Below are positions 4,220-52,172 of a stretch of 64,000 nucleotides of DNA, one piece after another. Where the stretch lies: assembly GCF_058153355.1 (NCBI RefSeq), contig NZ_CM177019.1. One strand, given 5' to 3'. Numbering within the stretch: the first letter of the stretch is position 1; every line of letters begins with the position of its first letter. The notes beneath the pieces were generated by a model. The model was not told the origin of the DNA, ran no database searches, and was given only the letters and a program-made list of their open reading frames with translations. The position numbers and the translations under genes were made by a program.

Positions 4220-5191
4220 ATGGAAACGAAAAAAAATAATAGCGAATACATTCCTGAGTTTGATAAATCCTTTCGCCATCCTCGCTACTGGGGAGCATGG
4301 CTGGGCGTAGCAGCGATGGCGGGTATCGCTTTAACACCGCCAAAGTTCCGCGATCCCATTCTGGCACGGCTGGGACGTTTTGCCGGACGACTGGGAAAAA
4401 GCTCACGCCGTCGTGCGTTAATCAATCTGTCGCTCTGCTTTCCAGAACGTAGTGAAGCCGAGCGCGAAGCGATTGTTGATGAGATGTTTGCCACCGCGCC
4501 GCAAGCGATGGCAATGATGGCTGAGTTGGCAATACGCGGGCCGGAGAAAATTCAGCCGCGCGTTGACTGGCAAGGGCTGGAGATCATCGAAGAGATGCGG
4601 CGTAATAACGAGAAAGTGATTTTTCTGGTGCCGCACGGCTGGGCCGTCGATATCCCGGCCATGCTGATGGCCTCGCAAGGGCAGAAAATGGCAGCGATGT
4701 TCCATAATCAGGGCAACCCGGTTTTTGATTATGTCTGGAACACGGTGCGTCGTCGCTTTGGCGGTCGTCTGCATGCGAGAAATGATGGTATTAAACCATT
4801 CATCCAGTCGATACGTCAGGGCTACTGGGGATATTATTTACCCGATCAGGATCATGGCCCCGAGCACAGCGAATTTGTTGATTTCTTTGCCACCTATAAA
4901 GCGACGTTGCCCGCGATTGGTCGTTTGATGAAAGTGTGTCGTGCGCGCGTTGTACCGCTGTTTCCGATTTATGATGGCAAGACGCATCGTCTGACGATTC
5001 AGGTGCGCCCACCGATGGATGATCTGTTAGAGGCGGATGACCATACGATTGCGCGGCGGATGAATGAAGAAGTCGAGATTTTTGTTGGTCCGCGACCAGA
5101 ACAATACACCTGGATATTAAAATTGCTGAAAACTCGCAAACCGGGCGAAATCCAACCGTATAAGCGCAAGGATCTTTATCCCATCAAATAA
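4220..5191 (+). CDS. lpxM: lipid A myristoyltransferase LpxM (MsbB)
   Basis: 323 aa, sequence matches E. coli LpxM, synteny. Confidence 0.95.
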
Positions 5192-5281
5192 AAAAAGCCT
5201 CTCGCGAGGAGAGGCTTCCGCCGTGTGATAAGTTCAAGTTTGCTTCAGAAGATTCGAAATCTGTTGAACTATCATTGAACT

Positions 5282-5317
5282 GTAGGCCGGATGAGGCGTT
5301 TTCGCCGCATCCGGCAA
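5282..5317. repeat. REP element
   Basis: gtaggccggatgaggcgttttcgccgcatccggcaa between the convergent lpxM and pykA. Confidence 0.65.
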
Positions 5318-5322
5318 CGTAC

Positions 5323-6765
5323 TTACTCTACCGTTAAAATACGCGTGGTATTAGTAGAACCCACGGTACTCATCACGTCGCCTTGGGTGACAATCACTAG
5401 GTCACCAGACATCAAGTAACCTTTATCACGCAGCAGATTAACCGCTTCGCTGGCAGCTGCTACGCCGTCATTAGCGCTATCAAAGTGCACCGGCGTAACG
5501 CCACGATAGAGAGCAGTCAGATTCAGCGTACGTTCATGGCGCGACATAGCGAAAATCGGCAGACCGGAGCTGATACGGGAGGTCATCAGAGCGGTACGAC
5601 CCGATTCGGTCATAGTGATGATCGCCGTAACGCCTTTCAGGTGGTTAGCCGCGTACATTGCTGACATGGCGATAGCTTCTTCCACATTGTCGAACTGAAC
5701 GTCCAGACGGTGTTTAGAAACGTTGATGCTCGGGATTTTTTCCGCACCCAGGCAAACACGCGCCATGGCTGCAACGGTTTCTGAAGGATACTGACCAGCA
5801 GCAGTTTCTGCAGACAGCATCACAGCGTCAGTACCATCCAGAACGGCGTTTGCTACGTCCATGACTTCTGCACGGGTCGGCATTGGATTAGTAATCATTG
5901 ACTCCATCATCTGGGTCGCAGTGATTACCGCGCGGTTTAACTGACGTGCACGACGGATCAACGCTTTCTGAATGCCGACCAGTTCAGGGTCGCCAATTTC
6001 CACACCGAGGTCGCCACGTGCAACCATTACCACATCAGAGGCGAGGATAATGTCATCCATTGCATCCTGGCTGCAAACGGCTTCCGCACGTTCAACTTTG
6101 GCGACAATTTTTGCATCACAACCTGCGTCGCGAGCCAGGCGGCGTGCATAGTTCAGATCTTCGCCGCAGCGCGGGAAGGAAACAGCCAGATAATCTACGC
6201 CAATCAACGCCGCAGTCTTAATGTCTGCTTTGTCTTTTTCGGTCAGCGCTTCAGCCGACAAACCACCGCCGAGTTTGTTGATACCTTTATTGTTGGAGAG
6301 CGGACCGCCGACGGTCACTTCGGTGAACACTTTCATGCCCTGAACTTCCAGTACTTTTAACTGAACGCGACCATCGTCCAGCAGCAGGATGTCACTAGGC
6401 ACGACGTCAGCAGGCAGGCCTTTGTAGTCGATACCGACTTTTTCTTTATCGCCTTCACCTTTACCCAGGTTGGCGTCGAGCAGGAATTTATCCCCAATAT
6501 TGAGGAAAACTTTGCCTTCTTTAAAGGTGGATACACGGATTTTGGGCCCCTGGAGGTCACCCAGAATAGCCACATGACGCCCCAGTTTTGCGGCAATCTC
6601 ACGAACTTTATCCGCGCGCATTTTGTGATCTTCAGGAGAGCCGTGAGAAAAGTTCATCCGTACAACGTTTGCACCCGCAGCGATAACTTTCTCAAGGTTA
6701 TTATCGCGATCTGTTGCTGGGCCTAACGTGGTAACGATTTTTGTTCTGCGAAGCCTTCTGGACAT
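5323..6765 (-). CDS. pykA: pyruvate kinase II
   Basis: Start taken at [19 protein letters not shown] (480 aa). The track ORF has 8 extra N-terminal codons. Confidence 0.95.
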
Positions 6766-6892
6766 GTAATACTCCGTTGACTGAAACAACCAGGTGTTGC
6801 TTGAACATGAAATCCGAATGAAATAACGCCGTTATGGCGATAAAGTAATCTCATTCGGATGTCGTATAAGATTAGAACAGTGACAGTCGTTT

Positions 6893-7762
6893 TTAGCGAT
6901 CGTCACTTAAATTAAGTAACTGCTTATCAAAACGCGATTCCTTCAGCGCTTCCTTGACCCGCTTCAAGTTATCTCTGAATTTTGCACCGCGTCGCAAAGT
7001 AAAACCTGTTGCCAGCACATCTATCACGGTCAGCTGTGCAAGTCGAGAAACCATGGGCATATAAATGTCAGTATCTTCCGGTACATCGAGGGTAATTGCT
7101 AGCGTTGCTTCTCGGGCAAGCGGGGTACCCGCAGAGGTGAGGGCAATCACCATGGCGTCGTTTTCCCGTGCCAACTGCGCCAACTCGACCAGATTTTTTG
7201 TTCTTCCAGTGTGAGAAATCAGCACCACCACGTCTCCGTCGCTACAATTCATACAACTCATGCGTTGCAGCACGATATCATCGGAGTACACCACCGGAAC
7301 ATTAAAACGAAAGAACTTATTCATCGCATCGTGGGCAACGGCGGCAGAAGAGCCTAATCCAAAAAACGCGATTTTTTTGGCCTGAGTGAGCAAGTCGACG
7401 GCGCGGTTAACGGCAGATTTATCCAGTGAATGACGGACATGATCGAGCGTCGCCATTGCCGACTCAAATATTTTTCCCGTGTATGATTCAACGCTGTCAT
7501 CTTCATTGACGTTGCGATTAACATAGGGGGTGCCATTCGCCAGACTTTGTGCCAGATGCAGTTTAAAATCAGGAAAACCGCGCGTGTCCATACTGCGACA
7601 GAAACGATTCACCGTCGGTTCACTAACATTGGCCTCCAGCGCCAGAGCAGCAATACTCGAATGGATCGCGTTATCGGGCGAAGCCAGAATGACCTCGGCA
7701 ACTTTGCGCTCTGATTTGCTCAAATGTTCCAGCTGAGACTGGATTTTTTCCAGCATATTCAT
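6893..7762 (-). CDS. hexR: RpiR-family regulator HexR (YebK)
   Basis: 289 aa, N-terminal HTH plus SIS domain, divergent from zwf as in E. coli. Confidence 0.9.
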   Translation of the reverse strand: MNMLEKIQSQLEHLSKSERKVAEVILASPDNAIHSSIAALALEANVSEPTVNRFCRSMDTRGFPDFKLHLAQSLANGTPYVNRNVNEDDSVESYTGKIFESAMATLDHVRHSLDKSAVNRAVDLLTQAKKIAFFGLGSSAAVAHDAMNKFFRFNVPVVYSDDIVLQRMSCMNCSDGDVVVLISHTGRTKNLVELAQLARENDAMVIALTSAGTPLAREATLAITLDVPEDTDIYMPMVSRLAQLTVIDVLATGFTLRRGAKFRDNLKRVKEALKESRFDKQLLNLSDDR

Positions 7763-21113: not shown

Positions 21114-21200
21114 AACATTCAAGCTGATGACCACCACGCTTTTTATTGACCATTTTGCACGCAAACTGGAAAACCTGGCGTCGTCATCTATTCTTAAAGG

Positions 21201-21304
21201 GCAAGGCAACTAAGCCCTGCATTAATGCCAACTTTTAGCGCACGGCTCTCTCCCAAGAGCCATTTCCCTGGACCGAATACAGGAATCGTATTCGGTCTTT
21301 TTTT
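21201..21304 (+). ncRNA. sdsR: SdsR (RyeB) small RNA
   Basis: gcaaggcaactaagccctgcattaatgccaacttttagcgcacggctctctcccaagagccatttccctggaccgaatacaggaatcgtattcggtcttttttt matches remembered enterobacterial SdsR, including the terminal hairpin and U-run. Location next to yebY is as in K-12. Confidence 0.8.
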
Positions 21305-21338
21305 AATTGCATTTGAAATCAATTGGTTGCAAATGTCT

Positions 21339-21358
21339 CCCCGAAATTCCCCGAAATT
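21339..21358. repeat. tandem direct repeat ccccgaaatt x2 (possible integrase arm-type sites)
   Basis: Exact 10-bp tandem duplication between the sdsR 3' end and int. Confidence 0.4.
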
Positions 21359-21371
21359 TACTCGAATTTCT

Positions 21372-21388
21372 GTATTCCGGTCTTTTTT
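21372..21388. repeat. degenerate second copy of the sdsR 3' terminator / att-core-like repeat
   Basis: gtattccggtctttttt here versus gtattcggtcttttttt at 21288..21304, differing by one indel. Confidence 0.5.
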
Positions 21389-21435
21389 GGTTATATCACA
21401 ACCAAAATACATTTAACAATCCATTTACGTTAAAA

Positions 21436-22512
21436 TCAGAGCAGTAAGTACGTTTTTTCTCTCTCATCAAGATACATTTTTGTTGTCTTCTCCGATGTGT
21501 GGCCAAGTAGACGCTGAGCAAATTCTTCTCCACATGTTTCTTTGTACAATCGTCCAGCCAGGCTTCTGACTTCGTGAAAAGTTGGTGGGTTTTCACTGAA
21601 CTGGATACCTGTTAATTTTCTGGCTGCGACAAATTTCTTTGTCAGGCCGTCCGGGTGAATGCTGCCGTCAGGGCTGTTTTTTCTAATCCCGGCACTGATT
21701 AGATAATCCCCCCTACTTACCATGCGGCACTGTTCAACTACTGCACCAAGTCGTAAACCAGCGACAGGAAGGCTGAGTGACAGGGGGATAGCAATCATCA
21801 TTCCTGTCTTAATTTGCCTGATGTGGAGACGATCATCATAAATATCACTGAACCGCATATTCGTTATGTCTTCGCGACGTTGTCCTGTTACAAGGGCTAA
21901 ATCCATAGCTAATGGGAACCATGCCGGAAGTTGATCTGCTGCCTCCCTGATGCAGTTGTATGTCTTTAGTTTCAGTCGTTCTCTTGTAACTACTATTTTC
22001 GGTGCTCTTGTTGGCGTGACTGGATTTTGAGATATACGTCCTTCAACAATGGCCTCGCGAAACATATCAGACAACACAGAACGCATTGATCCTGCCATTG
22101 TGTTTTTCCCTCCTTCAATCCACAAATCAAGAAACTCGGCAATATGGCGAGTGGTTATTTCTGTCAGTAAAATCTCTCCCAATTTTTCTTTTATTGTCTC
22201 CAGTTGATTTGCCCGAATTTTATAAGTATTTCTGGACACTTTTCTCCTTATAAGAATCGTTTTGTAACGTTCAATCCAGTCTGCCATAGTAAATGAGTCG
22301 AACCCTTTAAGCTTTTCAATTAAGGCAGCAGGAGAGTAGTTTTTGTATATATAATGATTTGCTTCAATTGCCTGCGCTACTGCATCTCTTCTTGAAATTT
22401 TACCTAGTGTAAATTCTTCTTTCGTCAGAGGGTTGCGCCAGTAATATGCTTTGTCTCTCCTTCGATATGTTAAGTTTCTAGGCAAATTGGGATCGTATTT
22501 TTTCCGCTGCAT
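21436..22512 (-). CDS. int: lambda-family tyrosine integrase
   Basis: 358 aa. N-terminal arm-binding-like region ([28 protein letters not shown]). C-terminal catalytic pattern ...[11 protein letters not shown]...[15 protein letters not shown]. Confidence 0.92.
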
Positions 22513-22759
22513 GTTTTAACTTCTCCATTAACGGACTGTCTCTCCCTTGTCGCCCATTAGGCTGATGGTGTGTTATATCGGTATCAACCTTATTTGGGTT
22601 GATATAGAAAGCCTCCGGAACCACCCTGTAACTCCTCCCGTGTAGTTCAGGTGCAGGATAAATGTTTCCATTCCTTGCCCATCGTCTCAGCGTTGATATT
22701 GATGGTGGGTTATCCGGATATCTGAGTTTTCCCCACGTTTTGAGTGTCACAAGATTCAT
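22478..22759 (-). CDS. xis: excisionase-like DNA-binding protein
   Basis: Lambda-Xis-like pattern LVTLKTWGKLRYPDNPPSISTLRRWARNGNIYPAPELHGRSYRV. Overlaps the int start. Start taken at MNLVTL. Confidence 0.7.
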   Translation of the reverse strand: MNLVTLKTWGKLRYPDNPPSISTLRRWARNGNIYPAPELHGRSYRVVPEAFYINPNKVDTDITHHQPNGRQGRDSPLMEKLKHAAEKIRSQFA

Positions 22760-22781
22760 TGCCATACCTCTCACGATATGA

Positions 22782-22810
22782 CCGCCAGTAAATATACAGA
22801 ATACTGGCGG
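22782..22810. other. perfect 9-bp-stem hairpin upstream of xis
   Basis: ccgccagta-aatatacagaa-tactggcgg. Confidence 0.4.
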
Positions 22811-22865
22811 GTGTGGTTGATTTTTAATAATCAGCTATGAAGTTCTAATCTGGATATAATGAAAT

Positions 22866-23054
22866 TCACGAGGACTGAAGTTTCTCGCAATTAAAATTTA
22901 TCAGTTTTACTTTCTGCTCTCTGGAAACGCCTGCTTCTTTTTCCCCTGAGAGCATTTTTTCGCATTCTGATTTCGTTAGTTTTGTCTTTGAGTATCTTGT
23001 CCAGCTGGTAGGAGATCCACCTTCCTTTTCAATAGTGGCTGTAATTTTATACAT
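22866..23054 (-). CDS. hypothetical small protein
   Basis: 62 aa starting at MYKITATIEKEGG with a ggagg SD 5 nt upstream; low GC. Confidence 0.55.
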   Translation of the reverse strand: MYKITATIEKEGGSPTSWTRYSKTKLTKSECEKMLSGEKEAGVSREQKVKLINFNCEKLQSS

Positions 23055-29189: not shown

Positions 29190-29245
29190 GATGGCAGCCT
29201 CCGCGATGAATTTGATTAACTCACCACCGGAGGTAGCAATCTCAT

Positions 29246-29325
29246 GGGGGGTGAGACGTACAGGGTTGCTACAACCGGTCATCACGGAACCCGGCCAGTC
29301 TTGCGACTGCCCCGCACGCCCCACC
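29246..29325 (-). ncRNA. c4-like antisense RNA, copy B
   Basis: On the minus strand, a 16-bp closing stem whose 4 G-U pairs are valid only on this strand. Inside it are a cagtc-GCAA-gactg hairpin, a ccgg-stem hairpin with loop gttccgtgatga, and a single-stranded tgtagcaa. The architecture is shared with copy A. Confidence 0.6.
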
Positions 29326-29355
29326 ATAATTTGAATGTGGCTGTGCATTACGCAT

Positions 29356-29432
29356 AAAAAAACCGCCTGAGCGCGGTTATGCGCCGTGAATGACTTCGGG
29401 GTAGCAATCCCAGCACCCGTTTTATGAGGTGC
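29356..29432 (-). ncRNA. short leader RNA carrying c4-target-like sites (module B)
   Basis: Lies downstream of the promoter at 29439..29467. Has the hairpin gcacct-cataaaac-gggtgc, sites ttgctac and tcattcacgg, and the terminator aaccgc-gctcag-gcggtt plus a U-run. Confidence 0.45.
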
Positions 29433-37384: not shown

Positions 37385-37414
37385 TTGACGACAACGTTAA
37401 TCCGGGGCTATATT
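37385..37414 (+). promoter_or_regulatory. sigma70-type promoter of antirepressor module A
   Basis: TTGACG - 17/18 nt - cTATATT. Confidence 0.5.
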
Positions 37415-37419
37415 CCTCA

Positions 37420-37497
37420 CGCGCCAGCAAAATCTGGCGTCGGGATTAGCACCCCGGATGTTTACGGAGCGATATGAGACGCGCCCGCGTCTTTTTT
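37420..37497 (+). ncRNA. short leader RNA carrying c4-target-like sites (module A)
   Basis: Hairpin cgccag-caaaat-ctggcg, sites ttagcac (37446..37452) and tacgga (37463..37468), terminator agacgcg-cc-cgcgtct plus a U-run. Collinear with the module B leader. Confidence 0.45.
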
Positions 37498-37530
37498 CAT
37501 ATCGTTTGCATAGTCACATTCGCGATTTAT

Positions 37531-37606
37531 GGCGGGCTGTGTGGGGGAGCCGAAAGGCTCGCCGGTTTCCGTACCCGGTAGTGCTAACCCCGCACAGTTC
37601 GCCACC
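37531..37606 (+). ncRNA. c4-like antisense RNA, copy A
   Basis: 76 nt. A 16-bp closing stem pairs 37531..37546 with 37588..37603. Inside are a gagcc-GAAA-ggctc hairpin, a ccgg-stem hairpin with loop tttccgtac, and a single-stranded agtgctaa. Confidence 0.6.
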
Positions 37607-37628
37607 CGATGATTGGAACATGAATGTA

Positions 37629-37657
37629 TTGACAGTTTCATGTTAGCAGATTACATT
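37629..37657 (+). promoter_or_regulatory. second promoter inside module A
   Basis: TTGACA - 17 nt - TACATT, followed about 60 nt later by a weak hairpin plus a T9 run (37694..37724). Confidence 0.45.
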
Positions 37658-37867
37658 CCTCGACGGTGCTCAAAACACCTTTCAGTAGCGGTTACCGCGC
37701 CCGACAGACATGCGGTTTTTTTTTGTGTCCAGAATTCTTGGTTTATGACTGGGCGTGCGGCTAATACAATACCAGCAATGGGAATACGCCCGCCGACTAC
37801 TGACGGTTTTGAGCGCCCGGTCACCCTCTCAAAAGGGGTAAATCAAAATATTCAGTAGGACATATTC

Positions 37868-38468: not shown

Positions 38469-38698
38469 AGAACATTACCACCGAGGATAAAATGATTTGC
38501 GGTGAAAGGGAAGTCAAGTAGAATTGCTGCGGGTGCTTGAGGCTATCTGTCTCAGGCATGAACACCAAAAGGCAGATAGAGAAGCCCCAGTTAACATTAC
38601 GCGTCCTGCAAGACGCTTAACATTAATCTGAGGCCCAATCTATGTCTCACAAATGTAGGTTAGCCTCTTACGTGCCGGAAGGCAAGGAGAAGCAGGCT

Positions 38699-38854
38699 AT
38701 GAAGCAGCAAAAGGCGATGTTAGTCGCCCTGATCGTCATCTGTTTAACCGTCATAGTGACGGCACTGGTAACGAGGAAAGACCTCTGTGAGGTACGAATC
38801 CGAACCGGCCAGACGGAGGTCGCTGTCTTCGTAGACTACGAATCCAGGAAGTAA
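38699..38854 (+). CDS. hok: Hok/Gef-family type I toxin (HokD/RelF-like)
   Basis: 51 aa, MKQQKAMLVALIVICLTVIVTALVTRKDLCEVRIRTGQTEVAVFVDYESRK. Nearly identical over its first 44 residues (two substitutions) to remembered HokD; the last 7 residues diverge. aaggaga SD at 38684..38690. Confidence 0.85.
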   Translation: MKQQKAMLVALIVICLTVIVTALVTRKDLCEVRIRTGQTEVAVFVDYESRK

Positions 38855-39904: not shown

Positions 39905-40194
39905 TGGTGGATTTACGTAAAGCGGCGCGGGGGCAGATGTGCACCGTCAGAATTCCTGGCTACTGCAATCACGATCCGGAAACGTCTGTGCTGGCGCATT
40001 ACCGACTGGCGGGAACGTGCGGAACAGCGATAAAGCCACACGATATGCAGGCAGCGATTGCCTGTAGCTCGTGCCACGATTTAATCGACGGGCGGGTAAA
40101 AACCAGCGATTACACCAAAGAAGAATTACGCCTGATGCATGCAGAAGGTGTTTTTCGCACACAAGAAATCTGGAGAAAGGAGGGATATTTATGA
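39904..40194 (+). CDS. DUF1364-family Cys-rich protein
   Basis: 96 aa, C..C...C..CH pattern (CTVRIPGYC ... CSSCHDLIDG), ATG overlaps the preceding stop. Confidence 0.55.
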   Translation: MVDLRKAARGQMCTVRIPGYCNHDPETSVLAHYRLAGTCGTAIKPHDMQAAIACSSCHDLIDGRVKTSDYTKEELRLMHAEGVFRTQEIWRKEGYL

Positions 40195-40745
40195 TTTACC
40201 CAACGAATACAGGAAAAAGCGGAGAACACCTTCGTCTCACCACGCTGGAAAGTGTCTGGATTCAGGGAAAACTACGTATGTGGGGGCGCTGGTCGTATAT
40301 TGGTGGCGGTAAGACGGGGAATATGTTTAACCTGATGTTGACCTCTAAAAAGCTGACAAAAACGGCAATTAACGAGGCGCTCCGGAGGATGAAAAAAGCA
40401 GGTCTGAACAAGTCTGAACTTGAGGCTTTTTTGCGGGATATGATTAACGGTAAGCAAAAGAGCTGGCTGGCGCATTGTACTGATGCAGAGGCGTTATGTA
40501 TTGATCGGGTCATAAGTGAGGTGCTGGCAGAGCATCCAGGATTGATTAGCGTCCTTCGGCAACGGTATGAGGGGCGGGGGATGACCAAACGCAAAATGGC
40601 TGAACTGCTGAATGATGCACACCCGAAATGGAGTTTAAGAACCTGTGAAAGACGCATTGAGCATTGGCTAAAGGTGGCAGAATTTATTTTGTACAAACCA
40701 ATGGTTATGGCTTTTGGTATAGAGAAAAAAGTTATTGCTTTTTGA
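40191..40745 (+). CDS. late-gene antiterminator Q-like protein
   Basis: 184 aa from MIYPTNTGKSG (ATGA overlap with the previous gene). Positioned directly upstream of a terminated short leader, the tRNAs and the lysis genes. Confidence 0.6.
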   Translation: MIYPTNTGKSGEHLRLTTLESVWIQGKLRMWGRWSYIGGGKTGNMFNLMLTSKKLTKTAINEALRRMKKAGLNKSELEAFLRDMINGKQKSWLAHCTDAEALCIDRVISEVLAEHPGLISVLRQRYEGRGMTKRKMAELLNDAHPKWSLRTCERRIEHWLKVAEFILYKPMVMAFGIEKKVIAF

Positions 40746-40934: not shown

Positions 40935-41011
40935 GGCCCTTTAGCTCAGTTGGTCAGAGCGAGCGACTCATAATCGCCAGGTCGCTGGTTCAAGTCCAGC
41001 AAGGGCCACCA
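40935..41011 (+). tRNA. tRNA, anticodon CAU (Ile2/ileX-like; Met not excluded)
   Basis: Cloverleaf ggcccttt agctcagttggtcagagc ... ctCATaa ... ggttcaagtcc ... gggccacca; close to remembered ileX. Confidence 0.85.
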
Positions 41012-41012
41012 A

Positions 41013-41089
41013 CCACCACTAGCTCATCCGGATAGAGCATCAACCTTCTAAGTTGACGGTGCGAGGTTCGAGTCCTCGGTGGTGGGCCA
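41013..41089 (+). tRNA. tRNA-Arg (UCU)
   Basis: Acceptor ccaccac/gtggtgg, anticodon loop ctTCTaa, T-arm cgaggttcgagtcctcg, encoded CCA. Confidence 0.8.
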
Positions 41090-41091
41090 GC

Positions 41092-41167
<76 letters not shown>

Positions 41168-41170
41168 TAT

Positions 41171-41245
<75 letters not shown>

Positions 41246-41858
41246 GCGAGATTTGAGACGAAGGTTGTTATTTGCACTGACACAATATTGTGTGGGAATG
41301 TCTGACTCCTTACCATCTCCTGTTCTGTGATGTTGTTTTGTTGCAGTTCCAGTGCTCTTTTTTCAGCACCAGAATGGTGCATTGTCGGTCAGGTTACGTA
41401 GTGAATCTCTGGCAGGGGACTGATAATGCATCATTCTGGTGTTGTAAATATCTCTTCGGACAACTTACAAAATATTCTAAGCAAACCCCGGGAACACACT
41501 CTTAACTGCCTTGGCTGGCGGTTTTTTGTACAGTGCTCGGTATGTGTGAGCTGGAAATCAGATTTTGCATGGACTGGAATCATGCTGTTATTTAGGGGCG
41601 AAGAACTGGCTTTTTCTTCCGCCTTCTCACCAGTAACGATTAGAAAAATAATGAAATGCCCACCTCCGGGGAGGAGGACCGTAGAAAAAAGGACCCGCCA
41701 GCAAAAACATTGGGGATGAACAGCTTTCGCTACTCAGATTGCTGGCGGGTAAAGTTCCTCATGAATTAAGAATGCTACGCGATCTTTTTTAATGGAAATG
41801 AAAATTATTGTCAATTAGTCGTGCGTGTTTTTTCATACAATATTGGTAAAGGTGATTC

Positions 41859-41891
41859 AGGCCATCAGAGTTTTGCTGATGGCCTTTTTTC
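41859..41891 (+). terminator. strong hairpin + T-run immediately upstream of the holin gene
   Basis: aggccatcag-agtttt-gctgatggcct followed by tttttt. Confidence 0.7.
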
Positions 41892-41926
41892 TTTCCGATA
41901 GCACAGGTCTGTCGGGGGGGCGGGAT

Positions 41927-42142
41927 ATGTATCAGATGGAAAAAATATCAACAGGCATTGCCTACGGCACCTCCGCCGGCAGTGCCGGCTACTGGTTTTT
42001 GCAGTGGTTGGATCAGGTCAGTCCATCACAGTGGGCTGCGATTGGTGTGCTGGGAAGTCTGCTTCTGGGGCTTCTGACTTATCTGACGAATCTGTATTTC
42101 AAAATAAGAGAAGATAAGCGTAAGGCTGCGAGAGGTGAATAA
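41927..42142 (+). CDS. phage-21-type pinholin (dual start MYQM)
   Basis: 71 aa. ...[67 protein letters not shown] matches remembered S21. Confidence 0.85.
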
Positions 42143-42639
42143 TGTCGCCATCATTACGCAAGGCTGTTGCAGTTGCTATTGGTGGCGGGGCTGTTGCTAT
42201 AGCATCTGTGTTAATCACTGGCCCAGGTGGTAACGATGGTCTGGAAGGTGTCAGCTACATACCATACAAAGATATCATTGGTGTATGGACTGTATGTCAC
42301 GGACACACCGGAAAAGACATCATGCCTGGTAAAACGTATACCGAAGCAGAATGCAAAGCTCTCCTGAATAAAGACCTTGCCACTGTCGCCAGACAAATTA
42401 ACCCGTACATCAAAGTCGATATACCGGAAACAACGCGCGGCGCTCTTTACTCGTTCGTTTACAACGTGGGCGCTGGCAATTTCAGAACATCGACGCTTCT
42501 TCGCAAAATAAACCAGGGCGATATCAAAGGCGCATGTGACCAGCTACGTCGCTGGACATATGCTGGCGGTAAGCAATGGAAAGGGCTGATGACCCGTCGT
42601 GAGATTGAGCGTGAAGTCTGTTTGTGGGGGCAGCAATGA
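42142..42639 (+). CDS. SAR endolysin (R21-like lysozyme)
   Basis: 165 aa; N-terminal signal-anchor-release segment [18 protein letters not shown] followed by a lysozyme domain. Confidence 0.88.
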
Positions 42640-43112
42640 GCAGAGTCACCGCGATTATCTCCGCTCTGGTTATCTGCATCATCGTCTGCCTGTCATGGGC
42701 TGTTAATCATTACCGTGATAACGCCATTACCTACAAAGAGCAGCGCGACAAAAACGCAAGAGAACTGAAGCTGGCGAACGCAACCATTACTGACATGCAG
42801 CAGCGCCAGCGTGCTGCTGATGCACTCGATGCTAAATACACGAAGGAGTTAGCTGATGCGAAAGCTGAAAATGATGCTCTTCGGCGCAAGCTTGATAATG
42901 GTGGTCGGGTGCTCGTCAAAGGAAAATGCCCTGTGCCATCCTCAGCCGAAACCTCCAGCGCCTCCGGCATGGGCAATGATGCCACCGTCGAACTCTCTCC
43001 AGTTGCTGGACGAAACGTTCTCGGTATCCGGGACGGAATCATCAGCGACCAGACAGCATTGAGAATGCTTCAGGAGTACATCAGGATCCAATGCCTTGGG
43101 GGGTGGCGGTAA
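42636..43112 (+). CDS. i-spanin Rz
   Basis: Start at [17 protein letters not shown] (ATGA overlap with the endolysin stop); TM helix plus coiled coil. Confidence 0.8.
42856..43062 (+). CDS. o-spanin Rz1 (embedded in Rz, +1 frame)
   Basis: [21 protein letters not shown] lipobox followed by a Pro-rich mature part. Confidence 0.8.
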
Positions 43113-43194: not shown

Positions 43195-43773
43195 TTAGCT
43201 AAAAAAAGGCAACACGAAGCTAAAACTACCAACATAAAGTGCTGACCAGCTAGCAGCTGAAATCAGACTCACTGTATACACTTTCACTGGATGAAGTTGC
43301 AACATTCCTGCCACCAAAGGAGCAATATAACGCAGCACGGCGATAAAGCGCGAAGTGAAAAGTATTGACACAGAGTTATTTTGCAACTGAAGGCGAACCC
43401 GTTCTATTGTATTGGAACGACTCGATATTATACATGCAAGTTGAGGGATATGCCCAATTATTATACCAAGATGGTAATTAACGATAGTACCGCACCATGC
43501 GCCACTCATGACCGTGATTCCAGCTTCCCATGGTGAAAGAGTCGTCTTGCTGACTGTAATTATAGTGGCCATCATAATTGATGCTGGTGGCAATATCGCC
43601 GAAATGAGTAAAGTGGATTTTGTGAACGCTATTATAAAAAGAAGCCCCCATAGGCGATATGGATGAAGTACAAAATAGTTCATCAAAGCATTTATCCACT
43701 CCATCAATGTCTTTCCTTCTGTGAATTTTTCTTTGCTATTAACCGTGATACGACTTAATTTAGGCTTAAACAC
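43195..43773 (-). CDS. DedA/VTT-family membrane protein
   Basis: 192-aa ORF (alternative start M24 at 43704). Polytopic, with the DedA-like segment SRFIAVLRYIAPLVAGML. Low GC. Confidence 0.6.
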   Translation of the reverse strand: MFKPKLSRITVNSKEKFTEGKTLMEWINALMNYFVLHPYRLWGLLFIIAFTKSTLLISAILPPASIMMATIITVSKTTLSPWEAGITVMSGAWCGTIVNYHLGIIIGHIPQLACIISSRSNTIERVRLQLQNNSVSILFTSRFIAVLRYIAPLVAGMLQLHPVKVYTVSLISAASWSALYVGSFSFVLPFFS

Positions 43774-43974
43774 CTTACATTTACAAGGTACTCCTGTGGG
43801 GGGCCTGCCACGGAGCGTCGCAGGAGTGAGTGATGAGGAAGAATTAAAGCAACCTATTGTGACAGGCAGCGATAACAGTAAATCACAGGAAGCATAATCA
43901 TGGCAAAACCGGACTGGGAGGTCATCGAAACGGCGTACCAGTGTCGGGTGATGTATAGGGCATCTATTTATTCA

Positions 43975-44523
43975 TCATCTGAAAAAAGAGTTGTCCGGAT
44001 GGGTTTCAATAACGGTTATGCTTGAAAGACGCGAGGGGTTAACCGTGAACTCATTTTCACCAAAATAACGACTGTGGGCATTGGGGCCAGCTAATATAGA
44101 ACAGGCTGGAGCTTCAGCTCTTAACAGCAAACCTGGTGATTTGTATGCATTCAATCCACGACCAAACTTCTCGGCGACTGAAATGTCTGTTGTCCAGCAA
44201 AAGCCAATGAGCCCTTTATCGAACCTGTCTTTATTTTCTCCCCGATAAAGTACAAGGCTGTCGCCATCATATGTTGGCAATAAGAGCGTTAATAGTTTGA
44301 GGAGAATTGAGTCGTCGTTGATCTTTTCACGTATAAAGGCCCCAGACTCAACCCATTGACTATGGAATGAATTTTTCATGGCAATTGATACTGGCTTTGC
44401 GTTATCGATGCTTTTGATAAACTCAACCCATCTGTTCCGACTGTGAATGTAATCAAGAAATTTCCTCTCATCGGACACCTTCGGTTGAGGGCGGTTATAA
44501 GCTGCGAAATCTTCTAACTTCAT
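43975..44523 (-). CDS. putative ADP-ribosyltransferase-fold protein (R-S-E class pattern)
   Basis: 182 aa from MKLEDFAAYN (gaggaa SD). Contains LVLYR94G, GFCWT111T112D and GE156NE158FTV in the order and spacing of C3/Alt-type ARTs. Low GC. The upstream part of the track ORF is antisense to terS and was rejected. Confidence 0.45.
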   Translation of the reverse strand: MKLEDFAAYNRPQPKVSDERKFLDYIHSRNRWVEFIKSIDNAKPVSIAMKNSFHSQWVESGAFIREKINDDSILLKLLTLLLPTYDGDSLVLYRGENKDRFDKGLIGFCWTTDISVAEKFGRGLNAYKSPGLLLRAEAPACSILAGPNAHSRYFGENEFTVNPSRLSSITVIETHPDNSFFR

Positions 44524-44542
44524 AATTTCCTCAGGTATATCA

Positions 44543-45094
44543 ATGGCACTCACCGACAAACAAGAAATGTTCTGTCGCGAGTACCTCATCGATTTAAACG
44601 CCACGCAAGCGGCTATTCGGGCGGGGTACAGCGCAAAGACAGCTAACCGTACCGCATCCGAAAACCTGTCAAAACCTGACATACAATTCAGAATCGCCGA
44701 ACTGAAAGCGCAACGCAATGATCTTGTTGGTATTAATGCAGAATATGTACTTAATCGCCTTATTGAAATCGACCAGATGGATGTGCTCGACATTCTCCTG
44801 CAAAACGGTGAGCTAAAGCCCATTAAAGACTGGCCTAAGGTATGGCGCACAACGCTATCAGGAATGGATGTCGTGGAGATGGTATCCGCAGATAGCGCCG
44901 CACTTCTGAAGAAAATTAAATGGCCTGATAAGGTTAAAAACCTTGAGTTGCTTGGGCGCCATGTTTCTGTTCAGGCGTTTAAAGACAACGTCAAAAATGA
45001 AGTGACTGGCGCTGATGGAGGACCAGTCAGAACAGAAATTACCAAATTAACGCCTGAGCAGGCCGCAGAGGTGTATAGAAAAATGATGGGCTAA
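44543..45094 (+). CDS. terminase small subunit
   Basis: 183 aa; N-terminal [32 protein letters not shown] pattern of the Terminase_2/P27-type terS. Confidence 0.85.
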
Positions 45095-45096
45095 GT

Positions 45097-46716
45097 ATGC
45101 CGTTACCATTCCCCTTCGATTTTAAACATCCTGATTACCAGATGGTTTTTGAATGGCGGATGGAACGCCTACAGCGCATTCGCCAGAATCCTGAAATATT
45201 GCCTGCACTAAAACAGTTTTACCGTACCAACCCGGCTCAGTTCATTATCGACTGGGGCATGACAACGGACCCGCGTAATATTGATTATGGCCTGCCGGTG
45301 ACCATTCCGTTTTTACTCTTCCCTAAGCAGGAGGAGTGGAGCCACTGGATTATGGAACGCTGGAGCAATCGGGAGAATGGTATTACCGAAAAATCCCGTG
45401 AAATGGGGCTCAGTTGGACCGCGATCGGACTGGCCTGCTCGCTTTGTCTCTTCAACAAAGAAATGGTTATCGGTTTCGGCTCCCGTAAAGAGGAATACGT
45501 CGACAGCACCGGTGACCCGAAAGCACTGTTCTGGAAGGCGCGCAAGTTCGTGGAAACACTACCTGTAGAGTTTCGCGGTTCGTGGAGCGAGAAGAAGCAC
45601 GCGCCATATATGCGTGTTGAGTTTCCTGAAACTGGCGCGGTTATCAAAGGTGAGGCTGGCGATAATATCGGTCGTGGTGACCGTACGACCCTTTATTTTG
45701 TGGATGAGGCTGCTTTTCTCCAGCGACCATTACTTATTGATGCCGCGCTTTCTCAGACAACCCGATGTCGTATCGATCTCTCATCGGTTAACGGCATGAA
45801 CAACCCCTTCGCACAGAAGCGGCACAGTGGAAAAATCCCGGTGTTTACGTTTCACTGGCGTAGCGATCCGCGTAAAGACGATGAGTGGTATCACAAGGAG
45901 TGCGAGAAAATTGATAACCCAGTCATCGTTGCCCAGGAACTGGATCTTAATTACCAGGCATCAGCAGAAGGCATCCTGATCCCCTCAGAATGGGTACAGG
46001 CTGCGGTTGATGCACATATCAGACTGGGCATTCAGCCCGGCGGCCAACGGCTTGGTGCAATGGATGTCGCCGACGAAGGGCGGGATAAAAACGCCTGTTC
46101 GCTCCGTTATGGCATCCTGCTGAATGACGTACAGGAGTGGTCAGGTAAGGGGAGTGACATCTATGACTCTGTGGTTAAGGTTTTTGGTCTGTGCGATGAC
46201 TTTGGTGCCGATGAGTTTCGCTTTGATGAGGACGGATTGGGTGCTGGCGTTCGTGGTGATGCGCGCGCTATCAACGAACTGCGTGAAGCGGAGGGCATCT
46301 GTCAAATCACCGCCACTCCATTCCGGGGCAGCGGGAGCGTGTTTCATCCTGAAAATGAAGCTGTTCCCGGTGATAATGGTAAACCGGCTCGTCTGAATAA
46401 GGACTTTTTTGTCAATGCCAAAGCCCAGGGGGGGTGGCATCTTCGCAAATTATTCCGCAATACATTTCGTGCACTACAGGGTATGGAGTATGACCCGGAT
46501 GAGATTATTTCCATCAGCAGCACAATGGAAAATAAAGACCGGCTGTTGATGGAGCTGTCACAACCTACCTGGTCAAAAAATGCCACCGGAAAAATTCTTG
46601 TGGATAAGCAACCTGACGGAACGAAATCTCCAAACCTGGCTGATTCTGTGATGATTGCTTATGCCCCGATGGAAATGCCCATCGTAATTTCTGATGACTT
46701 TATGGAGTGGATCTGA
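45097..46716 (+). CDS. terminase large subunit
   Basis: 539 aa; ATPase Walker-B-like LYFVDEAAF plus a C-terminal nuclease region; follows terS. Confidence 0.88.
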
Positions 46717-47186
46717 TGTGGCCGTTTAAACGAAAAGAACCGTCAGCGCCGGCGGTACCGGACAAACAACCTGAACCACAGCCACCGGAAATTAACGATG
46801 AGGTGATTGCTTCCGTCCGGCAGAAACCACGGAGGGAGTTTGTTCGCTATGAGCCACCACCGGGCGTTATCCCGGCACCGGTTCGCGACGCTGTGCTGGC
46901 AATGGATGCAACACCGTATGACACCCTGAACAGTCATTATCCTGATTTTGTTTATGGTGGTTTCCCGGGCTATCCGTATCTGGCACTTCAGGCGCAGTTA
47001 CCGGAGTACCGGCGTATGGTCAGTGTGCTTGCCGAGGAGATGACCCGTAAGTGGATAAAGGTTAAGGCGGTCGGAGAAGGGGACGACAGCCACGCGTCAC
47101 GCATAGCGCAGCTTACTGACGCACTGGAGCACTATAACGTACAGGACGTTTTCAGACTGGCGATTGAGCACGACGGCTTTTTCGGG
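46707..47186 (+). pseudogene. portal protein, 5' fragment (interrupted by an IS66-family element)
   Basis: The reading frame ...AIEHDGFFG runs into the IS left end at 47187 and resumes after 51093. Confidence 0.8.
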
Positions 47187-47305
47187 GTAAGCGTCTTATC
47201 AGGACCGTCTGGCAAATTCCCGATGCTTTGGACAAAGTATCCACCACTAAATTAATAGTGGGTGATAAAAATGTCAGATATACAAAAAAATGCCTCTCCG
47301 GGAAG

Positions 47306-48731
47306 TAATGCCAGTCAGTTAAGCAACTGACTGGCTCTTTTTCGGGGCTGTGGGGTATTTCCAGGGCCTCTCCTTTACCACTCTCGGGAAGGCCCTTTCC
47401 CTTCTTGTCGGTAATTTCACAAGTTGTCCCATACTTGCAAGATCGCGCATCAGCTCCGGTATACGTCCCGGTGAAGCGCCCTGCAATGTCATCAGCATTC
47501 TCATCACCATTCCGCATGATTCTGAGAAACTCAGTTGATTCGGCCAGTAACCTTTCAGATGTTCCGCCATTTTAATCATCTGATATCTCACCAGATTATA
47601 AGCCAGTAAGACACCCCACAGCTCTTGCTCCACAAGCTCCGGCTTTTTACTTCTCAGCGTCAGCCTGCTCAGTTGCATCGTCTGTTTTATCTCCCTGTAT
47701 CCCAGTTCGATTTCCCAGCGATGACTGTACAGATCCGCCATTTCTCCTCCGGGGAAGCGCATGGCGTCCGTCATCGACGTCAGCAGATGGCAGACTTTTC
47801 CTTTGCGCGTCACGGTCAGCAGGCGGGCTGTCACTTCATTTCCCAGTCCCGGCCACTTTTTTCGTGCCTGCGGGCTGGTTTTCAGCTTCACCAGATGATC
47901 GCCTTTACCCAGTTTTCTGATCTCTTCATATTGCGCTCCCTTTCTGAGAGGTATCATCCAGTGGCGGTGTTCTCCCGCCAGGCTCCAGGCATTTAACAGT
48001 CCCAGTGAGTAATAACCTTTATCCATTAACGTCAGAGTGTTATCGCCGGTTTGTTCTATAAGTTGCTCAGCAAGCTCATTTTCGCTGTTCTTCATCGTGC
48101 CGAAGGCTGCAGCCGTCAGCAGATGGCTGGTCAGTTCCATCTGGCAGACCATTTTGACCTGCGGGTAGAGCGCCGGGTTCCCGGCATGTGTCTGGCGGGG
48201 GAAGGCTGCATCGTTCTCTGGTGTATCCGGTGTGCGCCAGAACACACCATCGATGGCCAGCAGGGTCAGGCCGCACCAGTGCGGATGCGGCGTGGCGTTA
48301 TGCCAGAGCTGCGCTGTTTTCGTGAACACGCGGCGGACAGCCTCACTTCCCAGGCGCTGGCGGGCCTGAATAACGGCACTGGGGGCAACGAAGGGGCGAT
48401 TGCCCGGCAGCATGATGTCCAGGCGATTCACAATCTGGTGAAGAGGTTCTTTACGCTCAAGCGCCATGCCAACAATACACCAGACCATCATTTCGAGGGG
48501 AAGACGGCGCTTGCGTAGCGTTACAGTACCTGATTCGGCAAGGCAACGAGAGATGAGTTCGGGGTCGAGGTAATCCCCCAGAGAAGTCAGTGGGTTACGC
48601 AGAGAATCGTAACGGGATACCAGATCAAGAGCCTGTCCAATGTGCATAAAAAAATCCGGAAACAAGTGAGCGTTTCCGGATTCTTACACAGCCACTGGAT
48701 CGGTCAACTGATCCTTAACTGATCGGCATTA
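47306..48731 (-). mobile_element. IS4 (1426 bp)
   Basis: Terminal inverted repeats taatgcc.. / ..ggcatta. Exact 12-bp target duplication ctctccgggaag at 47294..47305 and 48732..48743. Length equals the canonical IS4 length. Confidence 0.95.
47319..48647 (-). CDS. insG: IS4 transposase InsG
   Basis: 442 aa from [20 protein letters not shown]..., matches remembered K-12 InsG. Confidence 0.95.
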
Positions 48732-49491: not shown

Positions 49492-51063
49492 ATGGACACC
49501 TCACTTGCTCATGAGAATGCCCGCCTGCGGGCACTGTTGCAGACGCAACAGGACACCATCCGCCAGATGGCGAAATACAACCGCCTGCTCTCACAGCGGG
49601 TGGCGGCTTATGCTTCCGAAATCAACCGGCTGAAGGCGCTGGTTGCAAAACTGCAGCGCATGCAGTTCGGTAAAAGCTCAGAAAAACTTCGTGCAAAAAC
49701 CGAACGGCAGATACAGGAAGCACAGGAGCGAATCAGCGCTCTTCAGGAAGAAATGGCGGAAACGCTGGGTGAGCAATATGACCCGGTACTGCCATCTCCC
49801 CTGCGCCAGTCTTCAGCCCGTAAACCGTTACCTGCCTCACTTCCCCGTGAAACCCGGGTCATCCGTCCGGAAGAGGAATGCTGCCCGGCCTGTGGTGGCG
49901 AACTCAGTTCTCTGGGATGTGATGTGTCAGAGCAACTGGAGCTTATCAGCAGCGCCTTTAAGGTTATCGAAACACAACGTCCGAAACTGGCCTGTTGCCG
50001 GTGCGACCATATCGTGCAGGCTCCGGTGCCTTCAAAACCCATTGCACGCAGTTATGCCGGAGCGGGGCTTCTGGCCCATGTTGTCGCTGGAAAATATGCA
50101 GACCATCTGCCGTTATACCGCCAGTCAGAAATATACCGTCGTCAGGGCGTGGAGCTGAGCCGTGCCACACTGGGGCGCTGGACAGGTGCTGTTGCTGAAC
50201 TGCTGGAACCGCTGTATGACATCCTGCGCCAGTATGTGCTGATGCCCGGTAAAGTCCATGCCGATGATATCCCCGTTCCGGTCCAGGAGCCGGGCAGCGG
50301 TAAAACAAGGACTGCCCGGCTGTGGGTCTACGTTCGTGATGACCGTAACGCCGGTTCGGAAATGCCTCCGGCGGTCTGGTTCGCGTACAGCCCGGACCGG
50401 AAAGGTATCCATCCACAGAATCATCTGGCCGGTTACAGCGGAGTGCTTCAGGCCGATGCTTACGGTGGTTACCGGGCGTTGTACGAATCCGGCAGAATAA
50501 CGGAAGCCGCATGTATGGCTCATGCCCGGAGAAAAATCCACGATGTGCATGCAAGAGTGCCCACCGACATCACCACGGAAGCCCTGCAGCGTATCGGTGA
50601 ACTGTATGCCATCGAGGCAGAGGTCCGGGGCTGTTCAGCAGAACAGCGTCTGGCGGCAAGAAAAGCCAGAGCCGCGCCACTGATGCAGTCACTGTATGAC
50701 TGGATACAGCAACAGATGAAAACACTGTCGCGTCACTCGGACACGGCAAAAGCGTTCGCATACCTGCTGAAACAGTGGGATGCACTGAACGTGTACTGCA
50801 GTAATGGCTGGGTGGAAATCGACAACAACATCGCAGAGAACGCCTTACGGGGAGTGGCCGTAGGCCGGAAAAACTGGCTCTTCGCGGGTTCTGACAGCGG
50901 TGGTGAACATGCTGCGGTGTTGTACTCGCTGATCGGCACATGCCGTCTGAACAATGTGGAGCCAGAAAAGTGGCTGCGTTACGTCATTGAACATATCCAG
51001 GACTGGCCGGCAAACCGGGTACGCGATCTGTTGCCCTGGAAAGTTGATCTGAGCTCTCAGTAA
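49492..51063 (+). CDS. IS66-family transposase (orfC)
   Basis: 523 aa; N-terminal leucine-zipper-like region, CPACGG zinc motif, DDE-type core. Confidence 0.9.
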
Positions 51064-51101: not shown

Positions 51102-52172
51102 CGAGGGCAGATTTATATTGATGTGCGTTCGCCATCGGGTATATCTGCCTGGACTGACCCGGCGGAGCTGGGATCCGGACTGTTTATTTCCGACAAAAAA
51201 ATCCCGAAAGGTTCCCTGCTGGGGCTTCGTGTTATTGAACCCGTCTGGACGTATCCGGGTATATATAGCGCGGATAATCCGCTGAGTGATGATTTTTACC
51301 GTCCGTCCGAATGGTACGTAATGGGAAAAACGGTTCACGCCAGCCGCATGATTGATCTGATCTCCCGTCCGGTTCCGGACATGCTGAAGCCGGCCTACAA
51401 CTTTGGCGGCCTGTCACTGGTTCAGATTGCTGAGCCTTATGTTGATAACTGGCTGCGAACACGCGACAGCGTGGGCGATATGCTGCATTCGTTTTCGCTG
51501 AGCGGGATTAAGACGGATATGACACAGGTATTAAGTGGTAAAAGGGACCCGAATTACGCAAAACGCGCGGAGTTGTTTAACCGTACCCGTGATAACCGCG
51601 GGCTGCTGATGCTGGACAAGACGAACGAAGAGTTTTTCCAGTTCAACACTCCCCTGAGCGGCCTCGACACCCTTCAGGCGCAGGCACAGGAACACATGTT
51701 CTTTGTCAGTGCCATACCGTCCGTAAAATTCGCCGGGCTGAGCCCAACGGGACTGAATGCGTCGAGTGAGGGTGAAATCCGGGTGTTTTACGACACCATT
51801 GCTGCACTTGCCACCCGTCTTCTGAAGAAACCGCTGAAAAAGGTGCTGGATATTATCCAGTTGTCTGAGTTCGGCGATATCGATCCTGATATCACGTTTG
51901 AATTTGAACCCCTGCATGAGCTGACGCGCGAGCAACTGGCGAATATCCGTAAAACTGAGGCGGAAACGGATCAGATTTATGAGAGCACCGGAGCAGTGAC
52001 CAATAACGAAGTACGCGAACGGCTGGCGACTGCGCAGGACAGCCCGTACAGCGGTATTGACCTGAGCGGGGACATCGAAATTGACGACACTGAAATTGAC
52101 AACACCGAAGAAAATCCGCCGCAAGGCCCGAATGCAGACCCTGAGGCGGATTTCACCCAACGCGGGGATTGA
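51102..52172 (+). pseudogene. portal protein, 3' fragment (DUF1073-type)
   Basis: Continues the frame of 46707..47186 after the IS and its duplication. Confidence 0.8.

Follow-up and report, generated by a model that had tools for sequence, protein, structure and literature searches.

ADP-ribosylation recurs in the conflict between phages and bacteria, with DarT, CmdT, AcrIF11 and the Alt/Mod enzymes of phage T4 as examples, and the fold and chemistry of ADP-ribosyltransferases (ARTs) of this kind are already well known. In the cholera-toxin-like (R-S-E) clade, the segment with the glutamate motif reads F-A-G-Q-x-E in C3 and, in iota toxin, Y-A-G-E-x-E; protein-modifying ARTs with an E-x-E motif usually target arginine. 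To our knowledge, no bacterial ART toxin has been characterised that lacks both an antidote and a delivery domain. Here, an ART-like gene and a neighbouring DedA-like gene were analysed, both located between the lysis genes and terS of a lambdoid prophage in a stretch of 64,000 nt (the window) of contig NZ_CM177019.1, assembly GCF_058153355.1; the coordinates given are positions in the whole stretch. We hold with moderate confidence that this region is the variable lysis-packaging cargo gap of a defective lambdoid prophage containing two independently acquired genes, a stand-alone ART-family enzyme that serves the lysogen and a divergent DedA protein. The ART sequence family, its stand-alone, immunity-free state and its place in a fixed slot beside terS appear to be undescribed, and a full-text literature search found nothing on the ART protein, its accession (WP_000762846.1) or a prophage DedA.

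The gap is bounded on the left by Rz (42624-43112, plus strand; Pfam Phage_lysis, 1.2e-29) and on the right by terS (44543-45094, plus strand; Pfam Terminase_2, 7.4e-40). The ART-like gene (43975-44523, 182 aa) and the gene for a divergent short DedA/VTT membrane protein (43195-43707) are both on the minus strand. A preliminary description of this DNA reported two AT-richer minus-strand open reading frames (ORFs) between Rz/Rz1 and terS. Both were found intact, and their G+C contents of 0.430 (ART) and 0.415 (DedA), compared with 0.502 across the window and 0.504 in the lysis genes, represent a real but modest dip. The same description treated them as one two-gene insert and proposed that they might form a functional pair, to be checked by their co-occurrence across genomes. 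The results below led us to abandon both ideas: these are two separate cargo genes from two phage modules, with a joint between them, and the caveat in that description that the genes may equally be independent was the correct reading.

The 1.46-kb region was used as a query against 5,426 complete Escherichia coli genomes. It was matched in 98 of them, in none over as much as 80% of its length, and ART and DedA were found together in 0 of the 5,426. About 90 genomes carry ART and terS without DedA, and at least four carry Rz and DedA alone. In the best four matches, Rz and DedA are present at 99% identity and are followed by a different terS-like gene; the contiguous Rz-DedA segment was found at 99% in E. 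coli FDAARGOS_943 (locus L002) and in others that have no ART gene. Among 31 IMG/VR loci with an ART gene, 22 have it about 20 nt from, and divergent to, a Terminase_2 terS, even where ART identity is as low as 43-45%. A DedA gene is present in just one of the 31, a locus with 99% identity to the window. Both genes were present at one of 113 loci with the 5' terS block (described below) among the contigs listed. In the contexts of distant ART or DedA homologues that were examined, the other gene was never nearby, and the arrangement of the window was met again only in a handful of short contigs that are almost identical to it (L003, L004 and L057).

The border between the two modules could be located by blastn. 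The match to L002, which has only DedA, ends at 43939, and the match to L001 and L058, which have only ART, begins at 43898. Because the DedA-side and ART-side homologies overlap by 42 bp, the interval 43898-43939, common to the Rz-DedA and ART-terS modules, was identified as a recombination joint. The sequence from 43900 corresponds to codons 1-13 of another, alternative terS-like gene (MAKPDWEVIETAY...), which in the window opens a stub ORF of 41 aa (43900-44025, plus strand). In L002, an intact plus-strand terS-like gene of 765 nt (4803-5567, 254 aa) follows DedA from the joint position. By these alignments, a 'lysis + DedA' module appears to have been joined by recombination to an 'ART + terS + terL' module, and it is recombination, not shared function, that put ART and DedA side by side. 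The absent co-occurrence and the joint indicate that the two genes are independent and not a single insert. It is highly improbable that an ART toxin and a DedA membrane partner make up one functional module for toxin and immunity, exclusion or envelope remodelling. The two genes are indeed adjacent and co-oriented in the window and in the three contigs like it, and as no terminator is predicted between them, read-through is possible; these points are opposed by the genome and locus counts, by the 42-bp joint that separates the genes and by the homologue contexts of lower identity, in which the partner was lacking. Recognising the pairing as a recombination accident spares work on a non-existent two-gene system.

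A Shine-Dalgarno sequence, GAGGA, precedes the ATG of the ART-like gene by 5 nt. It lies in the divergent intergenic spacer of 19 nt (44524-44542) that separates this ATG from that of terS on the opposite strand. The protein contains the motifs LVLYR94G, GFCWT111T112D and GE156NE158F, exactly as numbered in the preliminary description. The gene is under purifying selection, with a ratio of nonsynonymous to synonymous substitution rates (dN/dS) of 0.16-0.27. A word-indexed search returned only 36 relatives, and an exhaustive profile search revealed 1,013 ART-family clusters (50% identity) at E<=1e-3, of which 670 were at E<=1e-10. Most clusters cover profile positions of about 10-176, so conservation takes in the N-terminal helical region as well as the beta core. 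In an alignment of 71 relatives, 24-49% identical to the window protein, R94 was found in 71/71, G95 in 70/71 and W110 in 71/71 sequences. Position 111 was always T (49) or S (22), with positions 112-113 variable; E156 was conserved in 70/70 and E158 in 65/71 sequences, the others having G (three), Q (two) or V (one). The residues G95, G107, W110, A117 and F120 were likewise conserved. The R / S-T / E-x-E residues are therefore among the best-conserved positions of a large ART-like family.

This family was not recognised by the libraries searched. The ART protein had no match in Pfam, NCBIfam or PADLOC, none of the 71 diverse members matched a Pfam family, and a profile search of the PDB gave only chance matches, to UDP-GlcNAc pyrophosphorylase. 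The protein falls in PHROG 30882, annotated as 'unknown function'. Neither the region nor the ART protein was matched in megablast and tblastn searches against 50,697 deposited phage genomes; on the phage side, the family was found only in prophages and metagenomic viral contigs. Under accession WP_000762846.1, the protein is carried as a 'hypothetical protein' by E. coli B REL606/BL21, E. coli C and the enteropathogenic E. coli strain E2348/69. The gene is intact both in the prophage of the window, which is disrupted by insertion sequences, and in the E. coli B prophage remnant.

An AlphaFold2 model built from a 29-sequence alignment had a predicted local distance difference test value of 91.3 and a predicted template modelling score of 0.83. 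The model comprises five helices followed by a six-stranded core, with a helical N-terminal region at about 1-85 and the beta core at about 88-178. The first 90 aa, which the preliminary description noted ahead of the motifs and left unassigned, thus correspond to a helical region kept with the beta core throughout the family. Fold matches included Certhrax, C3, diphtheria toxin, exotoxin A and PARP15, as well as AcrIF11, HopU1, heat-labile enterotoxin and Tre1. The Foldseek comparison proposed earlier returned the same ART families with weak E-values (>=0.045). The fold assignment is supported since these weak structural hits agree, though none is strong singly. The model places the protein in the ADP-ribosyltransferase superfamily at the fold level, with a predicted split beta-sheet core, in agreement with the original call.

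In the model, R94 lies in predicted strand 1 (90-97), strand 2 (109-111) ends with T111, ahead of a helix at 114-122, and E158 is the first residue of strand 5 (158-161), preceded by Y-F-G. This arrangement is that of the R-S-E clade. Two features of the clade are present in the family, a conserved arginine in strand 1 and, where the ARTT loop joins strand 5, a (Q/E)-x-E motif, here E-x-E, the second glutamate of which is the catalytic one in the clade; seven homologues from high-GC phages have E-x-Q in place of E-x-E. An hhalign comparison with T4 ModA was not significant (E 0.044, probability 1.2%), although the alignment pairs LYRG with LWRG and the W-T-S segment with S-A-S, and no match to T4 ModB was obtained. 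This is a new sequence family, predicted to combine an ART fold with an R-S-ExE signature, for which we infer catalytic activity.

The ART gene sits in a conserved divergent cargo slot beside terS. Upstream sequences were compared for seven loci with ART proteins that share 45-82% identity with that of the window. Positions 44543-44577 of terS (35 nt) were identical and 44543-44603 (61 nt) near-identical in all seven, synonymous sites included; the 19-nt spacer and the remaining part of terS varied. This nucleotide-invariant 5' block of terS (44543-44603, plus strand) forms the fixed edge of the slot. Its exact 53-mer (44543-44595) was found in at least 120 IMG/VR contigs, and ART lies upstream of it in 3 of the 113 contigs listed. 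At 96 of 99 listed loci, the neighbouring ORF is divergent from terS, and the two start codons are 10-27 nt apart. Among the listed 53-mer loci, the gap from the lysis genes to terS ranged from 527 to 2,916 nt and contained 198 ORF clusters. Other occupants of the slot include DUF2158, DUF6953, DUF6173, DUF2441 and YfbU-like proteins, and several have no Pfam match. Because the slot holds many alternative small genes reading away from terS, the ART gene is probably transcribed independently of the late operon.

A promoter inside terS, which the preliminary description took to be necessary, fits the geometry of the slot, including the 19-nt gap, and would explain the nucleotide invariance of the first 35-61 nt. 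However, a consensus scan detected no sigma-70 promoter upstream of ART or DedA and no terminator, and when the terS block was read by eye, only weak -35/-10 candidates were seen and no promoter was called. An inverted repeat at 43790-43830 was considered as a terminator and rejected, since it folds no better than shuffled sequences (z -1.06). An embedded cargo promoter, a pac-type site and a recombination linker are equally possible explanations for the invariance of the block.

Outside the enterobacterial slot, stand-alone ART homologues were collected at 36 genome loci of Alpha-, Beta- and Gammaproteobacteria, Desulfobacteria, a spirochaete, a Balneolaceae bacterium and a cyanobacterium; no terS homologue was near ART at any of the 36. 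The neighbours of the 34 non-phage loci were almost all singletons, and all-against-all clustering of the neighbours at 67 ART loci gave no recurrent partner beyond phage core genes. Two candidates from this clustering were rejected. The helix-turn-helix proteins of cluster 10 are generic phage repressors that adjoin ART only in L035, and the 72-aa ORF downstream of ART (cluster 2) is probably spurious, as RefSeq annotates the opposite strand. The 124 proteins flanking the non-phage loci included housekeeping proteins, restriction enzymes of types I, II, IIG and IV, MADS components, PbeA, IetA, dGTPase and nSTAND3/STAND NTPases. Integrases, AlpA-like regulators and a DUF4065/SocA-like pair were also found near ART homologues. 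A Pantoea prophage (L009-L011) carries an ART homologue of 47% identity in the same position relative to terS.

From these data, the ART protein is proposed to be a stand-alone, cytoplasmic enzyme with the R / S-T / E-x-E arrangement of the cholera-toxin-like (R-S-E) clade. It would most likely bind NAD+ and move ADP-ribose to one specific macromolecular target; E-x-E suggests an arginine in a protein, and a nucleic acid is also possible. The gene would be read from the slot away from terS, apart from the late operon, and its product may be a targeted modifier that helps the lysogen; its most probable mode of action would be to put a component of superinfecting phages or other mobile elements out of action. 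A role in serving the lysogen is suggested because the gene reads against the lytic operons, is kept in prophages that can no longer make particles, and has chromosomal homologues in loci with a defence-island flavour. A self-poisoning abortive-infection toxin seems improbable, because no conserved antidote was found and the gene is intact in decaying prophages. The small size of the protein leaves no room for a sensor domain, which likewise argues against self-poisoning of the DarT, CmdT or Tre1 type.

Several observations weigh against an active transferase that serves the lysogen. Only a single S/T is kept of the three residues of the S-T-S motif. The expected catalytic glutamate, E158, is replaced in 6 of 71 relatives and E156 is invariant, a reversal of the usual pattern, and the register of the catalytic glutamate is therefore uncertain. 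No sigma-70-like promoter or terminator was found around the gene, and its expression in the lysogen is putative. No PADLOC defence model was matched by ten alternative occupants of the slot, and the defence genes among the 124 flanking proteins are a plain listing, not an enrichment statistic. In seven high-GC temperate phage contigs (L080-L087, about 4896-5399), the ART homologue is co-oriented and belongs to the early region, where it follows DnaB-like helicase and NinB-like genes and precedes ParA-like or methylase genes and lysozyme. In the Pantoea prophage, a gene of the Acb2/Tad1-hairpin family (anti-CBASS/anti-Thoeris; 6638-6919) adjoins the ART homologue on the late strand. The last two observations fit a defence role but also, together with the analogy to AcrIF11 and ModA, a counter-defence or host-takeover enzyme, produced from the prophage or early in infection, that would ADP-ribosylate and inactivate a host immune protein or reprogramme host machinery, as AcrIF11 does with Csy1 and T4 ModA, ModB and Alt do with RNA polymerase, S1 and EF-Tu. 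This explanation is entertained tentatively, as a possibility that is less likely than service to the lysogen: the ART gene of enterobacterial prophages always reads against the lytic units, it is intact in prophages unable to make virions, and many homologues are chromosomal, beside restriction-modification, MADS, PbeA and IetA genes. A virion-packaged, Alt-like role, prompted by BFVD hits to MuF/minor-capsid fusions, was rejected, as the upstream genes in L080-L087 are for replication and the ART gene of the window reads against the late operon.

An ART-like fold could also serve another role, as an NAD+ glycohydrolase, a Tpt1/KptA-like enzyme working on the ends of nucleic acids, an RNA or DNA base ADP-ribosylase on the CmdT, DarT or Scabin model, or an inactive binding module. 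We consider this unlikely. The invariant R / S-T / E-x-E residues with an aromatic-x-G ahead are the signature of R-S-E transferases and not of Tpt1, the hallmark of which is an Arg-His-Arg-Arg tetrad; toxicity would be expected of an unregulated NADase, or of a nucleic-acid ART that has no antitoxin, and yet a conserved partner was not found. A broader proposal concerns the whole slot. It may be a promoter-bearing exchange site, set by the invariant 35-61 nt of terS, at which lambdoid phages swap dozens of unknown single-gene conflict effectors, and its ART occupant would found an immunity-free, single-protein class of ARTs (about 1,000 clusters, in Proteobacteria and beyond) that modify one foreign target to protect the lysogen or disarm host immunity. 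We regard this proposal as doubtful at present. Whichever role applies, the ART family of about 1,000 clusters is covered by no curated library, its target and role are directly testable because existing laboratory strains of E. coli carry WP_000762846.1, and the terS slot is a simple genomic handle for gathering many uncharacterised phage accessory genes.

The longest ORF of the DedA gene (43195-43773, minus strand) encodes 192 aa from a GTG codon and contains SRFIAVLRYIAPLVAGM. More probably, translation starts at ATG 43704 (169 aa) or TTG 43707 (170 aa), judging from the homologues of 169-170 aa and from the RefSeq coding sequence of 170 aa in L002, which equals the TTG start. The identification of the neighbour as a VTT/DedA-domain protein was confirmed by Pfam (VTT_dom, PF09335; E 2e-13, 51.3 bits against a cut-off of 33.9, profile positions 5-121 of 123). 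Its description as a canonical housekeeping member was not supported, as the NCBIfam DedA/UptA equivalogs scored 15-30 bits against cut-offs of 236-300. The gene is under purifying selection (dN/dS 0.26). In an alignment with YqjA, R120 and R126 match R130 and R136, so that the arginine pair is conserved, and the positions of YqjA E39 and D51 are occupied by K30 and A42 in all nine aligned members of the subfamily. Mutagenesis by the Doerrler laboratory reportedly found the membrane-embedded charged residues E39, D51, R130 and R136 to be essential for YqjA function. The phage protein has about 170 aa compared with 220 aa in YqjA, with some 50 C-terminal residues missing.

The phage DedA subfamily is narrow, with 19 clusters and with Shigella and E. 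coli among its members. A Citrobacter homologue (77% identity) lies in a lambdoid prophage, in the gap between lysis and terminase genes and on the opposite strand, with no ART gene. The Enterobacter (49%) and Arsenophonus (43%) homologues (L015-L020) are chromosomal and adjoin an mgtE-family (CBS + MgtE) transporter gene. The phage DedA is probably a captured, divergent member of the family and is not regarded as a canonical proton-coupled one; its gene may have been taken from the chromosomal lineage that adjoins the mgtE-family transporter gene. It probably acts alone, as a membrane-level factor in lysogenic conversion or exclusion.

A Q-like antiterminator gene (DUF1133, 40071-40745) is followed by a P21-type holin (41825-42142), lysozyme (42142-42639) and Rz with the embedded Rz1 (42856-43062); terL (45097-46716) follows terS. 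The portal gene is in two pieces, an N-terminal part at 46707-47255 and a C-terminal part at 51123-52172, with an IS4-family transposase (47319-48665, minus strand) and an IS66-family transposase (49492-51063, plus strand) between them. The prophage is considered defective because its portal gene is split by these insertion sequences. At the position of the portal in the window, L001 (E. coli B REL606) has a truncated gene after terL (6822-7580) annotated by RefSeq as 'anti-CBASS protein Acb1 family', a label that may be an artefact. A cluster of four tRNA genes (40935-41245, plus strand) lies between the antiterminator and holin genes, with the anticodons CAT (tRNA-Ile in the matching cluster of L002), Arg-TCT, Thr-TGT and Gly-TCC. 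The prophage integrase gene (21436-22512) is adjoined by SraC/RyeA and SdsR/RyeB, identified with Rfam. Stretches with Rfam hits are located at 21163-23048, 29244-29432, 37408-37830 and 38531-38704; matches in the window also included the RalA antitoxin RNA, sRNA-Xcc1, sok, and two copies of C4 antisense RNA plus isrK in the opposite orientation. Inside the ART/DedA region there was no Rfam match, and no meaningful repeats were found around it.

Compared with known DedA proteins, the phage protein shares with YqjA/YghB and UptA the VTT domain, and its R-x5-R pair and P..AG motif (SRFIAVLRYIAPLVAG) align with YqjA R130/R136. It differs from them in being shorter, in lacking the C-terminal segment and in having Lys and Ala at the E39 and D51 positions. 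It also stands apart from the DedA family in being phage-borne in Shigella, E. coli and Citrobacter and in its sub-equivalog scores. The ART protein has no detectable sequence relationship to the R-S-E ARTs C3, Vis, Certhrax, ExoS, HopU1 and ART2.2, and its 71 relatives are outside Pfam. Unlike these enzymes, it is a cytoplasmic protein of 182 aa that lacks a signal peptide, a secretion domain and a B subunit; its family keeps a single S/T for S-T-S, has the first glutamate better conserved, and resides on phages and genomic islands. It differs from T4 ModA/ModB and AcrIF11 in being encoded on a temperate phage, against the lytic operons, and in having many chromosomal family members; no significant sequence or profile match links it to ModA/ModB. 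In contrast to DarT-DarG, CmdTAC, Tre1-Tri1 and TreX/TreTu-Tri, whose toxins are accompanied by a neighbouring antitoxin or immunity gene or joined to a delivery domain, no conserved neighbour was found in 67 loci and no PADLOC model was matched. Like the moron hotspots of phages, of which the P2/P4 defence hotspots and lambda bor/lom are examples, the terS slot is a fixed site between conserved core genes that accommodates many small genes mostly independent of the late operon. It is distinguished from them by an edge formed by an invariant block inside a coding sequence and by cargo genes on the opposite strand, whose start codons lie 10-27 nt from that of terS.

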